Made by a program: the position numbers. Below are positions 21,001 through 27,000 of a DNA stretch of 64,000 nucleotides, in pieces. Where the stretch lies: positions 768,001-832,000 of the forward strand of contig CAXXJV010000001.1 in the NCBI GenBank assembly GCA_963663475.2, read 5' to 3'. Every line of letters begins with the position of its first letter. The first letter of the stretch is position 1. The stretch is from Candidatus Cloacimonadales bacterium (GTDB taxonomy: Bacteria; Cloacimonadota; Cloacimonadia; Cloacimonadales; JAFGVF01).

Positions 21001-24000
21001 TTATTGGTTCAGTAATAGGACTAGGTATTGCTAGGAAAAATGTCGATGTTAACTTCTCTCAATTAAGAAAGATTTTCTTGGGTTGGCTTATTACTCCTGT
21101 TTTTGCTTTTTTAATATCATATATCTCTCTGTATTTTATCGAAAATGTCTTCTTGCAAATAGTTAATTAGCCTGAATAGAGAGATAGAGAGATAGAGAGA
21201 TTCTTTACACGAATTAACACGAATTAGAGCGAATTTCACGAATAAGAAAAGCTATTTAACACAGAGTTCATAGAGGTAAAGAGGAGTTTCACAGAGTTTT
21301 TAAGAACTAACTAAACTCTTAAATTATTATCATCCTCATGTTTTTGTATCTCTTGTGTGATTCTCTTAATTCCCCTTTCAGCTCGTAAGAGCGGTATGAG
21401 AGGGGTGCCGTAAGGCGGGGAGAGTCTTAAATTGGCCTCTTTGTCATTGCATTTCTTGTAGCATGCTTAATCCTTCCTTTACAGTCTTTCGATGAAAGTC
21501 CATGTTTCATCGAAAGACTGTAAAGGAAGGATTAAGGATGGAAAGAGGGAGATTATGGTTTATTTTTGTCAAATGTTTGCTCTTCCCGCCTTACGGCTCT
21601 AACTGGGAACGCGGACCAGACTGTGTAAAAAGAAATAGTCTATCCACGGATTTCACCAATTTCACGAATTACTTTTTGCTAAAAGCAAAAAAAGAGAGAA
21701 GAAAAAGATCCTTACCACAGAGTTACACAGAGTTTAGGAAAAAATTAGCTTGCTAAAAGTCTGCCTGTATTTGGGTCGCGGGATTCCAGCCCGCGTTTAC
21801 GCAGGTGACAAGTGGTTATGGGATTGGGTCGCGGGATTCTAGCCCGCGTTTATGCAGGTTACAAATGGTTATGGGATTGGGTCGCGGGATTCCAGCCCGC
21901 GTTTACGCAGGTGACAAGTGGTTATGGGATTGGGTCGCGGGATTCCAGCCCGCGTTTACGCAGGTGACAAGTGGTTATGGGATTGGGTCGCGGGATTCTA
22001 GTGTCAATAGCAGTTTAAATTGGTACAGTTTTGGCAGTTTAAAATGGTACACTATTGTAAATCATATTTCCTTATAGTTTTCCTTTCATTCTATAACTAT
22101 TTCCATCTATTAGAACTGTTTCTGCATGATGAACTAATCTATCTACTATAGCAGTAGTTATTACATTATCTCCAAAGGATTCTCCCCACTCTTGGAATAG
22201 CCTATTAGAGGTAATGATAATAGATCTATATTCATATAACTCATTTATTAGCTTAAAAAATAAACTCGCATTTACTGCCTTAATAGGAAGATAGCCTATC
22301 TCATCAATAATAATAAGATCATTTTTTACTAACTTTGAAATCCATTTTTTGAAGTTATTTTCTACATTAGCAATAATCATTTCATCAATTAGGTCATTCA
22401 TATTGTAAAAAATAACTTTATATCCTTTTAAGATAGCTTCATATCCTAAAGCTATAGATATATGAGTTTTACCTACACCAGGAGGACCCATTAATATTTT
22501 GTTTTCTCTGTTATCTATCCAAGTAAAGTCCTTCCACTCAGTAATCATTCTTTTAGTTATTGAATGCTGATATTTAAAATCAAAATCATCAAAACTTTTC
22601 AAAAGAGGAAATTTTGACCTTCTAATCTGTAAATTTATCATCGTTTGATTTCTACTATTGCATTCATTATCAATTACATATGAAAGAAAATTCATATAAG
22701 ATAACTGATTATCTTGTGCATATTTAAGATATGATTCTAAATTATTAATAGTATGCCTGCATCTTAGTCTAAATAGATTTTTCTTTAATGTTTCGATCAT
22801 TTTTTTACCACCTTATTATAAATTGATAAATCTCTCTGTATAACTGATTTTTTTGTTTCTATTATCCCATTGACTTGATTTTGATAGTTAGCAGATAACT
22901 TATTGCCTTTTATCTCTTCTTTGACTATAGACTCTATCTTTGTTGCTTTTATATCTTCTAATTCTAGTGCTTTAGAAATTATGTTTGACCAATTTAAGTA
23001 TTTATTTTTATTATACATTTTTAAAAATGCTAATAGTTGCTCTCTGGGATTTCTGTGATTATGTGCTATGAGTAAATTTAATAAAAGGATTATCTTGTCA
23101 TTATTGGGGAATAGTGAGCAAATATCTTCCTTTATATTATTAATTGTTTTCGAGTAGTCTATGTAATGACATTGAGATATGATAGGTTTTGTTCTTTCTC
23201 TGGAAATCCTATGAGATGCAACTTTTTTTCTACTATTCCTATCTATTATTTCTAAAGTGTCTTCATTTTCTTTAACTATAACTATCTTTTGTTGATAGAT
23301 ATAAGGAACTGAATATTTGTTACCATTCCATGAGATAAGACCTGTTTTATCTACTTTTCGTGTCTCTGCAATATTCAGGTTATATCTTCTTAATAGTTTT
23401 TCTTCTTCTTTAAACATTACTATAGGTCTTTCTCTAAGCGTACTGTGGATACGATTATTTACTTCTTCTAACCAGCTTTTTGATTTCAACTTAACTTCAG
23501 ATAAACTAGTAAATACTTCACCATCAAGAAAATCATACTTAACTTCTTGAACTTGTCTTTCTACCAACCCTTTACTTTCAGGATCATAACCTTCACAAAC
23601 ATAAGGACTTATTGTTAGATTATTCATAAATTGAAAAAACTTATTATTATAAGTTACTTCTCGATAAATCTCCTTTATAACGACTAGTTTTGTTTGATCA
23701 TAAACCATTGTCTCTGGGATATATCCAAAATATTCAAAGCAATCTTTATGGGCTTGGATGAAGTCTTGAGTCTTATAAGGTCTTGTTTGAAAATGTACAT
23801 ATTTCATTCGTGAATAGCAATAGCTAAACACACAAAAGTATATTTTTAACTTGCTCTTATCAGATAAATAGATATTATACTCTCCGGGATCAACCTGCAT
23901 CTGATTTCCTGGTTCATAATTGACAACTCGATAATAACGCTTAGTTGGTTGTATTAAATTATTTTTTATTTTTTTTGAAAAATTAAAAAAAGCTCTTTGT

Positions 24001-27000
24001 TTTACAGGTAATTTTCCATGCTGTTTGGATAATTTACGATATAATTTACTTAATCGCATATTAGGAAATTTTGTTAAATGTTTGCTAATTTCTTCCCTGT
24101 AAATTTCGAGCTTACTTGTTCGATTGACTTTCATTAAAGTTTTTTCTACGGTTTCAATGTCTTTTTGTAAGTAACCCATAACTGTTGTTTTAGAGATACT
24201 TAACTGTTCTGCTATTTCTCTTATACTCTTGCCATTTTCTCTTAATACTCTTATTGCGTGATACACTTGGACTCCTTTCATATTGTCTCCTAGATTTCTC
24301 TATTTTTTTATCTAGGAAACTGTACCAGATTAAACTGCCATTTGTGTACCAATTTAAAATGCCATCTACATCTAGCCCGCGTTTACGCAGGTGACAAGTG
24401 GTTATGGGATTGGGTCGCGGGATTCTAGCCCGCGTTTATGCAGGTGACAAGTGGTTATGGGATTGGGTCGCGGGATTCTAGCCCGCGTTTACGCAGGTGA
24501 CAAGTGGTTATGGGATTGGGTCGCGGGATTCTAGCCCGCGTTTATGCAGATAGCAAGTGGTTATGGGATTGGGTCGCGGGATTCCAGCCCGCGTTTATGC
24601 AGGTGACAAGTGGTTATGGGATTGGGTCGCGGGATTCTAGCCCGCGTTTATGCAGATAGCAAGTGGTTATGGGATTGGGTCGCGGGATTCTAGCCCGCGT
24701 TTATGCAGATAGCAAGTGCTTACGTTATTGGGTCACTGGACAGACTGTGTAAAAAAGAAATCAAATAAATAGAAAAAAAGTACTAAAAATGCATATAATA
24801 TATTGACAATAAATACTATAAGTATATTTTGATATAAAAATAGATCAGGAAATTATATTAAAAATGTGATACATTAAATGTGAAGATAGAGAGCAAATAC
24901 CTTTATTAAGTTATGACAGTTTAATACCTGAAAATCATATTGTCAGAGTTGTTGACTCTTTTATAGAATTTTTAGATAGAACTAAATATAAACTTAAATA
25001 CATTGAACCTAAAGAAACAGGAAGAAAAGCATATCCGCCGAAGACAATGTTAAAACTTTATTTGTAGAGATATACACAAAATATCAGATCAAGCAGAAAA
25101 CTTGAAAAAGCTACACATGAAAATATCCCATTCATCTGGCTAATGAATGAACTAAAACCTGATTTTAAAACTATCTCTAATTTTAGAAAAAACAATAAAA
25201 AGAGCTGTAAACTAATTTTTAACAAAAGATTGGAAATTGTAAAAGGTGAGTTTGCATTAACTTGCCTTGCTTATAAGCTAAAAAGAATATTAAATATTTT
25301 AGGATTTGATAAGATGATTGCGTCTATGAAAAGTTTCTTTGACAAAAAAGCTAAGAAATTAGCTTTATTTTTAGTTTATTTCAACTTATTTATAAGAAAA
25401 ATGATAAATATTCTTTATTATCACTCAAAATTAGAAAGTTTATGCTACTAAAACAAAAATATCCTCTTCTTATATTAATTACTTCGATTTGATAATTTGA
25501 TAATTTAATTTTTACACAGTCTGGATAGCTTGTCCGCACAAGCACTTGTAAGTAAGTGCTTGTTAAACACTAGCTAGCTTTCAGGATTGGTGGTTAATTT
25601 GATGGTTAATTATTTATTTTCTTTCTTTCTTATTCGTGAAATTTGAGGATAGACTTCTTTACTACACTATGAGGATTTTCTTGTAGGCAGTTTTCAAACT
25701 GCCTACTGAGGGAAGGATCCTCGCCTTACGTCAACTCTTCTCTAAAGATCTAATCCACTTTTCTGGTTTAGCTTAAGTTTATGTTTAATTCTATTAATGC
25801 GGGTTTCTGCCTCACTAATTGCATTTGAATCGAAGCTACTAGCTTCATGTAGCATAATATAGGCCTTTCTAGCATAGTAAAAGGCTTGTGAGAGGTCTTT
25901 GATTTTGTGTTCATACAGCATAGATATCTCCAAGCAAATGCTGGGAGAGTTAGCTTCTTTTCCTTTGAGATACTTAATAGCTAATTGGTATTTCTTTTCT
26001 CTTTTCAGAAGGGTAGAAAGCAACAAAATAGCTTGGTCGGAAGCAGTCTGCCTAGCAGCTAGTTTTTCTAGTAAGGCAAGAGCTTGTTTAGTCATCCCTA
26101 TATCATTTAAGAGTTTAGCTAGGTGAAAATAATCAATTTTAAAATTATCTAAAAAAGCTAAATCTAAAAAATGTAAATCATTACAGATAGCTAAAATCCT
26201 TGTTAAAGTAAATAAGTCTTGGCCATTATGATAGAAAACATTAGAAATATCTTCAGCATTGTTAGTTGCTAGATAATCAAAATAAGCCTTGGGGATAAAT
26301 TCACCAGGAATATCATTCGAATAGTCTCTAATATAGTTAAAGATAACCGCTTCAATATTTTGTAGTTTGCAACCTTGTAAGATTGGTTTCCACAAGCGTC
26401 GAGAAAGATGGAGAAGGTCAAGAAAGTCTAAGTTTCGAATAGAATAATCACTTTTATGAAATTTAAATCTGTTGTCTAGGAGAGGGATATCATAACATTT
26501 ACCATTATAACTAACTAAGATTTTGAAGTTACTTAGAAGTTGGGAGAGAAGTTTCATTAATAGGGGTTCATTATCTGGTGATTCGATAAAGTATTGCTTG
26601 AGTTGCCACTTATTGTCTCTATAGTAGAGAATACCAGTCAGAAAAGCGTAGGTGTTTGCTCCCCTGTCAAGTCCAGTTGTCTCTGTATCAAGAAAAACAA
26701 TTTCTTCTGCTTGGGCATAATTAAATATCTTACTATACTTGTGTAACCAATTGGGAATGCAAGGAGGTAAGTCAGAAAGATTAGCTTCTTGCTTAGCTAC
26801 AAAAGCTTCTTCATGGATGAAAACACGCTGGGAATTTTCACTATAATAGGAGCCTGAAATAAATTTATCAATTGGCTGATAATCTTTTTTTATAAGATCT
26901 TTCTGATCAGATAAATCATCTAAAAATAGTTTAAGGTTAGCCATTGTCTGTTTCCATAATTTCTCTTAATAGATCTAAGACACTTTCCTTAGCACCATAA

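Follow-up and report, generated by a model that had tools for sequence, protein, structure and literature searches.

Insertion sites of IS21-family elements in Cloacimonadota: a loose bias towards GC-rich, gene-free repeat islands

MuB and TnsC are AAA+ target selectors, and the polymer that such an ATPase forms on target DNA sets the regional bias of transposition; MuB prefers AT. IS21 elements insert without strong target sequence specificity (PMC10122671), a structure-based choice of malleable S-shaped targets has been proposed (PMC11208146), and promoter-adjacent curved DNA has been suggested for IS5376 (PMC11208146), which is the opposite direction to the sites described here. REP-targeting insertion sequences have been listed for the families IS3, IS110, IS4, IS256 and IS5 in a report that contains no mention of IS21 (PMC1525189), and our literature search found no report of an IS21 bias towards repeat islands of the kind described below.

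The window, that is the whole stretch of 64,000 nucleotides analysed from a Candidatus Cloacimonadales genome (G000), contains one full copy (2369 bp, 22002..24370, minus strand) of an IS21-family element, element A, which starts with TG and ends with CA on either strand. Its istA gene (22797..24281, minus strand) encodes a DDE transposase of 494 aa (NF033546, 206.7 bits with a cut-off of 160) resembling IS5376 IstA (8B4H, 8Q4D; E 2e-28), and its istB gene (22072..22800, minus strand), which overlaps the istA stop, encodes an AAA+ helper ATPase of 242 aa (PF01695, E 1e-74; NF038214, 258 bits with a cut-off of 200) resembling IS5376 IstB (E 6e-52). From reading of the sequence, the right terminal inverted repeat is placed at 22002..22051 (plus strand) and the left at 24318..24370 (minus strand), each with two direct repeats inside. 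The element is flanked by a 5-bp target duplication, TCTAG, whose left copy (21997..22001) falls in the loop of the short hairpin of a 53-bp repeat unit and whose right copy lies at 24371..24375 (both plus strand). Element A thus carries the features of the IS21 family: istA followed by istB, both above the NCBIfam cut-offs; terminal inverted repeats ending in CA with putative internal binding sites that are repeated; and a short target duplication (5 bp, as in IS5376) that measures 5 bp in 14 of the 15 copies of the genome's two IS21 elements. No extra targeting gene was found within the element among ORFs of at least 90 aa, and it encodes neither a TnsD/TniQ nor a Cas selector. A PF15978 match in IstA residues 3-105 is weak, below cut-off and overlaps the HTH region.

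This copy sits in an island bordered by two intact genes, a phosphate transporter gene on the left (20124..21170, plus strand; PF01384) and an RNase H-superfamily gene on the right (25742..26944, minus strand; PF13482). Between them lie a mosaic of other repeat modules (21171..21770), including a 57-bp GC-rich module (21370-21425) and a hairpin with 36-nt arms (21462-21540); a REP-like tandem array of 53-bp units, from a family of about 56% G+C, with 4.3 units to the left of the element (21771..21998) and 6.9 units to its right (24371..24734); and a decayed element (24741..25523, plus strand), labelled IS1182-like by inference from its ends (a terminal inverted repeat, with similar ends in genome G003), whose ORF remnant gave no Pfam match. 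Mosaic and arrays are unstranded, as is a second, longer 53-bp array of 25 units elsewhere in the window (14680..16011), which has no IS21. The core 20-mer of the 53-bp unit occurs 137 times at up to two mismatches, at 36 loci. The unit is REP/BIME-like in being short, extragenic, high-copy and clustered or tandem, and copies of it flank on both sides, in inverted orientation, a Y1 gene at C1:198709 with a putatively RAYT-like product. REPs are recognised by their tag, GTAG or CGTC, and by a stable hairpin (PMC3733652); by eye, the 53-bp unit has a GTAA-like word and a stem of 6-7 bp, and two units of the window array have no fold advantage over their shuffles (z -0.78). An Rfam search of the window returned no match. 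Since the junction word of the empty site has 16 further exact copies in the genome, the array is older than the insertion.

G000 carries two IS21 elements, as the survey's finding had stated: A with 8 copies (96.6-100% identical) and B with 7 (76% identical to A). The 14 duplications of 5 bp are all different, and 38 oriented sites, drawn from three genomes, yielded no target consensus. That copies are near-identical yet have distinct duplications implies that these elements moved recently. Using gene calls from our own script and a repeat mask of our own (18-mers occurring at least 4 times, elements excised), we reproduced the presence of an intergenic repeat within 20 bp of 13 of the 15 copies, and the repeats at these 13 sites belong to 8 module families. 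One copy, at C1:1961818, lacks a duplication and lies 215 bp from a masked repeat. No G000 copy is closer than 185 bp to a gene or RNA gene, and one is 203 bp from 5S. The earlier statement that a gene is never interrupted did not hold: a peptidase-M15-like ORF is split by the copy at C1:2114141, and each half of it can be aligned to the second M15_3 gene of the genome (E 1.5e-12 and 0.002), while Pfam searches with the separate halves found no match. This gene looks to have decayed before the insertion. Orientation to replication is unsupported as a site determinant (7 copies leading and 8 lagging, by hand count from skew and element strands), as is a hotspot downstream of rRNA, which a post hoc count found at 3 of 4 operons in G000 but at 0 of 17 sites in G007 and 0 of 7 in G008.

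The bias is seen again in relatives. For G008, where the survey had judged about 5 of 7 left flanks by inspection to show tandem hairpin repeats, 5 of 7 sites are near repeats with both flanks checked and 4 of 7 with an independent mask, and all 7 sites are non-coding. In G007, added in this follow-up, all 17 sites are non-coding and 9 are near repeats (10 with an independent mask), giving shares of 13/15 in G000, 9-10/17 in G007 and 4-5/7 in G008. The near-repeat background in G007 and G008 is 13-23%, compared with 10/17 and 4/7 of IS21 sites; the repeat masks of these relatives are based on sampled stretches of each genome and undercount. By eye, the G006 copy lies in a tandem array and the G005 copy does not, as reported before. 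Target duplications are 6-9 bp long in G007, and those of G008 measure 5-8 bp. The counts leave aside the flanks of five further draft genomes. Among other sources, contigs from 4 of 24 public runs break at the element's ends and give neither new flanks nor insertions from before selection, the viral contigs searched contain no relative, a search of genome contigs with a single protein gave 1 locus, and the best plasmid matches are at about 39% (ISCfr8-type).

To judge the 13 of 15 we need the proper null. The p of 9e-6 against a null of 30% given in the survey overstated the significance, whereas the excess itself survives: the null is 34% over all intergenic bases, rises to 50-57% after removal of promoter and terminator zones and reaches 60% for positions that lie 180 bp or further from every gene, so that P ranges from 4e-5 to 0.016 (0.001-0.016 for the stricter nulls). 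That the null climbs to 57-60% deep in intergenic space speaks for selection alone, with random insertion and GC-rich island cores as the sole harmless places for a 2.4-kb insertion. Gene avoidance is general, being found in all IS groups counted (1/39, 2/25, 1/15, 0/4 and 5/26 sites in genes for five groups, at about 80% coding) and in prophages, and it is not strict within the IS21 clade: of the 22 sites of a member from metagenomes, between 6 (with Pfam support) and 9 lie in reading frames, which against 1/39 gives Fisher p 0.007 and 0.0002, respectively. Because this member hits reading frames and every IS group avoids genes, selection explains most of the gene avoidance. Against selection as the whole account, the excess persists at every depth tested (p 0.0014-0.013), and selection gives no ground for favouring GC-rich modules over AT-rich MITE or redundant prophage DNA. 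AT-rich DNA that is apparently neutral is hardly used: the MITE family (29 kb, 31% of repeat bases) received 0 of 13 IS21 (p 0.008), and 152 kb of prophage DNA received 0 of 15. Furthermore, AT-target IS families, a group delimited after its AT-rich targets were seen, survive in non-repeat intergenic DNA (2/26 near repeats); other elements do persist there, while IS21 is almost absent. We consider selection alone improbable.

Neither is the island preference specific to IS21. Repeats are near 6 of 8 IS3 copies in G000, in agreement with the earlier count, near 17 of 25 IS3 copies overall (68%) and near 12 of 15 IS1182-like copies (80%); the preference is common to IS21, IS3 and IS1182-like elements. 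The labels IS1380-like, IS1634-like, IS4-like, IS1182-like, MITE and Mu-like are provisional assignments of ours from PF01609 matches and element ends.

A loose target bias towards GC-rich stretches of a few hundred bases is real, shown as a statistical pattern. IS21 sites in G000 have a mean of 49% G+C over 120 bp, compared with 37% for island positions, 33% for coding and 28% for non-repeat intergenic DNA, and 9 of the 15 fall in windows of at least 50% G+C, which make up 0.85% of the genome. Even within repeats, 9 of 13 sites are at 50% G+C or more where 11-16% are expected (p 1e-6 to 2e-5). In a model of G000 sites, G+C gains 19 log-likelihood units and 'near repeat' 5.8, the latter adding just 0.6 on top of G+C, and under an intergenic null matched for G+C, 11.8 of the 15 copies would lie near repeats (P 0.31 for the observed 13). 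Site G+C is raised also in G007 (p 0.001) and G008 (p 0.0002); for 38 sites pooled, G+C gains 29.5 units, to which stems add 0.5 and G4 score 0.3, and the best G+C window is about 300 bp. G+C alone accounts for the near-repeat counts in G000 and G008. In G007, the G+C of the sites does not exceed that of other island positions, and a repeat excess remains after G+C matching (10 observed versus 5.4-5.9 expected, p 0.01-0.02). The metagenome member shows no G+C excess on its single visible flank (35.8 versus 34.3%, p 0.41, 22 sites), and distant IS21 in G027 favour AT-rich DNA. The data comprise four element bursts in related hosts of 33-37% G+C, whose GC-rich stretches are mostly mosaic islands of REP-like repeats, and G+C is confounded with repeat youth and with module identity.

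The survey had read the same bias as structure-guided targeting. A bias beyond selection is borne out; guidance by hairpins is unsupported in G000 and G007, and only the 7 sites of G008 show longer stems. In such guidance, extruded hairpins or cruciforms would supply a kink for the IstB-IstA complex, and kink-prone DNA has been suggested as a hotspot for IS21 and IS3 (PMC11208146). The window copy does lie in the loop of a short stem, folding at the sites is better than in coding or non-repeat DNA, and the sites of G008 have longer perfect stems (9.1 versus 5.2 bp, p 5e-5; GC-matched percentile 0.92 for 5 sites). Yet the fold excess disappears against island positions (p 0.11-0.66) and GC-matched positions (z -1.19 versus -1.47, p 0.57), stem length does not exceed background in G000 (p 0.79) or G007 (p 0.31), and the two-unit stretch of the window array, as noted, gains nothing over its shuffles. 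Moreover, the strong hairpin family with 36-nt arms is never hit in its 131 copies, and the position of sites relative to stems varies. Fold, stem length, G4 score, A-tracts and pyrimidine-purine steps were all rejected as predictors beyond G+C for G000 and G007, and we give hairpin guidance a low probability.

Copies of different families gather at one small module: for 3 IS21 and 4 IS3 copies the closest module is the one of 57 bp, which makes up 3% of repeat bases, and in two cases IS21 and IS3 occupy one island together. This would fit recruitment of both by a host or REP-associated factor, either a protein on GC-rich modules or nicks or single-stranded intermediates from Y1 (RAYT-like) enzymes, by analogy with the capture of insertions by H-NS (PMC11335895). 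Also in favour, island modules flank some Y1 genes (4-14 Y1 matches per genome), the signal is regional, and the G007 excess outlasts G+C matching. On the other hand, no such factor was identified: the H-NS family (PF00816) was not found in G000, G007 or G008, and only HU/IHF-type genes were; module sequences are wholly different between the three genomes; and G+C suffices for two of them. Recruitment by a factor appears unlikely, though not negligible.

The copies might also be less independent than they seem, had islands grown around elements or recombination copied IS-bearing segments. An island segment of about 700 bp with an IS21 end remnant does occur at two loci (91% identical), but all 14 duplications and their flanks are distinct, and for 10 of 15 copies the junction word as it reads without the element (21 bases, or 16 for the duplication-less copy) is found elsewhere in the genome, in four cases 10-21 times. 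Distinct duplications largely refute recombination copying of full-length copies, and this account is very improbable.

We therefore regard it as about an even chance that these are ordinary two-gene IS21 elements whose surviving positions reflect selection together with a loose regional bias to GC-rich silent islands, arising at the level of IstB or of accessibility. Purifying selection would clear most gene insertions, as for every mobile element counted here. IstB would bind DNA without sequence specificity, two decamers wrapping the target into an S shape, and would form this assembly most readily on long, GC-rich DNA that is free of genes and carries no polymerase or AT-binding proteins. 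IstA would then cut where the IstB pair comes to rest, which we propose as the reason for the varied repeat families, varied positions and duplications of 5-9 bp. Repeats would in this way act as a sink through composition and emptiness and not through the reading of hairpins. A bolder version, which we hold as tentative and rather doubtful, is that a clade of Cloacimonadota IS21 has a built-in safe-harbour bias without a dedicated selector, IstB preferring GC-rich REP mosaic islands or a host protein on them, with a genome-wide sink common to IS21 and IS3. If true, it would mirror H-NS capture on the GC-rich side, and the structure-based site choice proposed for IstB could be read from natural insertions in vivo.

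For site choice by IstB-type proteins in cells, structures suggest DNA shape; the four elements studied here make a bias measurable with their 39 natural sites. If the bias is intrinsic, IS21 joins the elements that find a safe harbour in extragenic repeats, by a route less strict than recognition of REPs. Repeat islands may also buffer transposon load. As a caution, targeting is overstated by gene avoidance and by counts of sites near hairpins unless there are controls for promoters, composition and other IS families.

Among known systems, MuB and TnsC offer a likeness in that an AAA+ ATPase helper may be the source of regional bias, and a difference in that IS21 here encodes no TnsD/TniQ or Cas selector. 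Like IS1397, ISKpn1 and ISPsy8 (IS3), IS621 and ISPpu9 (IS110) and ISRm22 (IS4), the elements lie in extragenic palindromic repeat clusters and spare genes. Those elements are highly REP-selective, with ISPsy8 inserting at a fixed point of its REP (PMC1525189), whereas IS21 here uses at least 8 repeat modules at varied points, with about 30% of copies elsewhere, and shows neither the shared target nor the fixed position in one REP family that defines a REP-specific IS, a class in which nearly all copies lie in repeats and the transposase or a guide RNA carries the specificity; the local IS3 and IS1182-like elements fit that class better. Capture by H-NS (ISAba13, IS903) resembles the present case in its regional hotspots (PMC11335895) and in keeping important genes free, but H-NS draws insertions to AT-rich DNA and the bias here is to GC-rich DNA. 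IS5376 of the IS21 family (PDB 8B4H, 8Q3W, 8Q4D; PMC10122671, PMC11208146) has the same istA-istB layout, internal direct repeats in the ends and 5-bp duplications, and likewise has no target consensus and no extra ORF. IS5376 is reported to show some clustering by promoters in 10 sequenced in vitro events, whereas the elements described here lie deep in GC-rich repeat islands.

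A complete IS21 element (element A) lies at positions 22002-24370 of the window and is an ordinary member of its family; its istA (494 aa) and istB (242 aa) genes are both on the minus strand, score above the NCBIfam cut-offs and match IS5376 in the PDB. The target duplication TCTAG brackets the element inside a 53-bp tandem array. This array belongs to a 1.6-kb mosaic island of intergenic repeat modules, bordered by a phosphate transporter gene and an RNase H-like gene. Also in the island are a long hairpin, a 57-bp module and, at 24741-25523, a decayed IS1182-like element; another IS1182-like entry in the window is at 21618. 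The 53-bp unit is REP-like because its core occurs 137 times in the source genome (G000; 3.30 Mb, two contigs, C1 and C2, 33% G+C) and copies of the unit, inverted relative to each other, stand on both sides of a Y1 transposase gene. Modules like those building the islands border Y1 transposase genes and genes that we take to carry the GxxExxY motif (C1:697413, 700120, 198709, 1464151, 2619180 and 1980774), an arrangement that suggests where the island modules originated.

G000 carries eight copies of element A and seven of element B, a second IS21-family element 76% identical to it. Using genes called by our own script (2507), with elements excised before masking of 18-mers present at least four times, we reproduced the survey's finding that 13 of the 15 sites have a repeat no more than 20 bp away. 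The corresponding null is 34% of 398 kb of intergenic DNA, rising to 50-57% without promoter and terminator zones and to 60% for positions at least 180 bp from any gene, with P for 13/15 ranging from 4e-5 to 0.016 across nulls. The restored junction word is found elsewhere in the genome for 10 of the 15 copies; therefore, repeats preceded the insertions. At three of the four rRNA operons, IS21 occupies the gap just downstream of 5S (C1:236542, 989838 and 1406308; post hoc p 3e-4), a placement not seen in relatives G007 or G008. Two of the three sites are in homologous repeat sequence, with about 15 bp between their positions.

Older IS21 end remnants (C1:94435-95106, 1241090-1241793, 670151, 694815 and 2885239) adjoin repeats in five of five cases. 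Duplication of one remnant-bearing island segment shows that an island can be copied as a unit. The copy at C1:1961818-1964186, which has no short duplication, sits between two near-identical 160-bp direct repeats within a larger duplicated block. That recombination copied elements together with their islands is nonetheless a very improbable account of the distribution: the 5-bp duplications reported earlier are present at 14 of the 15 copies, every one different, and the insertions are independent.

Among 40 relatives, 19 have an IstA match, and bursts that a tree places in the same clade occur in two genomes that are complete or nearly so (17 copies in G007, 7 in G008). All 24 copies are non-coding, with duplications of 5-9 bp. 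With repeat vocabularies built solely from evenly spaced background regions (20 in G007, 28 in G008), 10 of 17 copies in G007 are near repeats against a background of 18-23% (p 0.0002-0.0015), and 4 of 7 in G008 against 13-16% (p 0.008-0.014); a stricter threshold gives 7/17 and 3/7 against 8-14%. Visual inspection of nine additional copies, single or remnant, showed eight that are apparently non-coding on visible flanks and one with a 102-codon open flank; in eight, at least one flank is GC-richer than its locus.

The claim that IS21 never interrupts a gene is wrong: a decayed peptidase-M15 ORF is split by one of the copies, and the two halves of this ORF align to the other M15_3 gene of G000. 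Within this host family we classified the empty sites of several IS groups as in a gene or near a repeat. The counts were 1 and 27, respectively, of 39 sites for the IS21 clade, 2 and 17 of 25 for IS3, 1 and 12 of 15 for IS1182-like elements, 0 and 4 of 4 for palindrome-type IS4, 5 and 2 of 26 for families with AT-rich targets (a group defined after targets were seen), and 6 and 10 of 30 for distant IS21 (15/16 fetched loci in G013, 13/22 in G027 and 2/2 in G003, after exclusion of partial or nested copies). All gene-hit rates are far under the 63-86% coding background, the eight Mu-like prophage junction regions inspected are intergenic as well, and island residence is equally common in IS3 and IS21 (Fisher p 1.0).

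An end-of-element scan of metagenome contigs gave 31 loci with 26 distinct flanks and, after four nested or non-standard flanks were dropped, 22 sites of one clade member (IstB 57% identical). Six abut Pfam-matched reading frames (four at E<0.001, two weak) and three others are apparently in coding sequence as judged by eye, which puts 6-9/22 in genes versus 1/39 for the clade (p 0.007 or 0.0002). Because every IS group counted avoids genes and this member often does not, gene avoidance mostly reflects selection and is not an invariant property of the clade. Element A copies about 99% identical occur in aquaculture, wastewater and oil-field metagenomes (runs X5, X11 and X14, among the 4 covered of 24 runs), where contigs end at the element's ends and so show no insertion sites from before selection. 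One metagenome contig (L198:1501-1569) holds only its terminal 69 bp, possibly a composite or miniature derivative, adjoining an arylsulfotransferase-like frame and followed by unrelated genes.

Selection alone, with islands as the space where insertions survive, is an improbable explanation of island residence, and a bias beyond it is probably present. Other elements persist in non-repeat intergenic DNA, which therefore tolerates insertions. The largest G000 repeat family, AT-rich and MITE-like (29 kb, 256 loci, 31% of repeat bases), received none of 13 IS21 hits (p 0.008). Its copies, about 170-200 bp with ends resembling an IS1380-like element of relative G002, often sit just upstream of genes. 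Neither a long-arm hairpin family (131 copies in G000) nor the CRISPR-array-like repeat of families 7 and 21 (up to 88 copies at three loci, included in the mask) has an IS21 hit. The 152 kb of prophage DNA contains 0/15 sites; its copies are 97-99.8% alike, and it may be young or useful. G000 has six or seven Mu-like prophages of two or three families (C1:1-23265, 140569-171006, 1362900-1391213, 1922700-1931300 and 2680001-2710913; C2:1-13505 and 304200-331003); both contigs begin within one, and one prophage transposase is split by IS3.

The absence of a shared target sequence holds, with no consensus over 38 sites. Targeting guided by hairpin structure is not supported: folding energy at sites is statistically indistinguishable from that at random island positions (p 0.11-0.66) and at GC-matched positions (p 0.57). 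What distinguishes sites is G+C, 49% over 120 bp versus 37% in islands (p 8e-6). Nine of 15 sites fall within the 0.85% of the genome at 50% G+C or more, as do 9 of 13 within repeats versus 11-16%. Under an intergenic null matched for G+C, 11.8 of 15 sites would be near repeats (P 0.31). With three genomes pooled, the log-likelihood gain is 29.5 units for G+C, and no more than 0.5 on top of it for stems, G4 score, A-tracts or flexible steps. The signal is strongest near 300 bp and weak at 10-40 bp, and is therefore regional. Some results run contrary: the repeat excess in G007 persists after G+C matching (p 0.01-0.02), the metagenomic member has no G+C excess (p 0.41, one flank), and distant IS21 of G027 favour AT-rich DNA. 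Stems are long at the seven sites in G008 (9.1 vs 5.2, p 5e-5), as guidance by hairpins would predict, but with folding energies at background we regard such guidance as unlikely indeed. Sequence by itself does not allow G+C to be told apart from the identity or age of the modules, and the data comprise four bursts in related hosts. The pattern is real and replicated; its explanation is weaker than, and different from, that first proposed.

Each IstB decamer bends a 60-bp duplex, and two decamers give an S-shaped target (PMC11208146, in the parts covered, which also propose structure-based selectivity and suggest kink-prone DNA as IS21 and IS3 hotspots). IstB could therefore settle best on long, GC-rich, unoccupied DNA while selection clears gene hits, a reading to which we give about an even chance. 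A host or RAYT-linked factor that draws insertions to islands is a less likely candidate; REP families and their RAYTs (PMC3733652) and capture by H-NS (PMC11335895) are described in the sections covered, and no H-NS family gene was found in the three genomes searched. In the parts covered, PMC10122671 reports no strong IS21 target specificity and some clustering near promoters in 10 events, and PMC9208149 describes new IS drawn to IS hotspots. In the literature searched, with ISfinder, most subscription papers and supplements outside its scope, IS21 is nowhere described as concentrated in REPs or GC-rich islands, and no paper deals with the insertion sequences and repeats of Cloacimonadota.

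Group II intron-like reverse transcriptase genes form two pairs in G000 (C1:196689, 2659169, 501618 and 1832390), one in repeat islands and the other not. IS1182-like elements insert at fixed points of palindromic modules, in 5/6 cases in relative G003 (L154-L158) and 2/2 in G000 (C1:1550587 and 1646832). In each genome, IS3 insertions fall about 40 bp or less from a single repeat type, apparently always in the same orientation: the 57-bp module, or the motif at its end, for 6/8 copies in G000 (for example C1:212893, 1656288 and 2638635), a run of short direct repeats for about 9-10/11 in G002 (L133-L143, by eye), and another such run for 6/6 in G007 (L045, L144-L148). This placement resembles that of IS1397 and is tighter than that of IS21. 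REP targeting is described for IS3, IS110, IS4, IS256 and IS5, with IS21 unmentioned in the parts of that source covered (PMC1525189). Although IS21 here fails the fixed-target test that defines such REP-targeting elements, it is loosely similar to them in behaviour.
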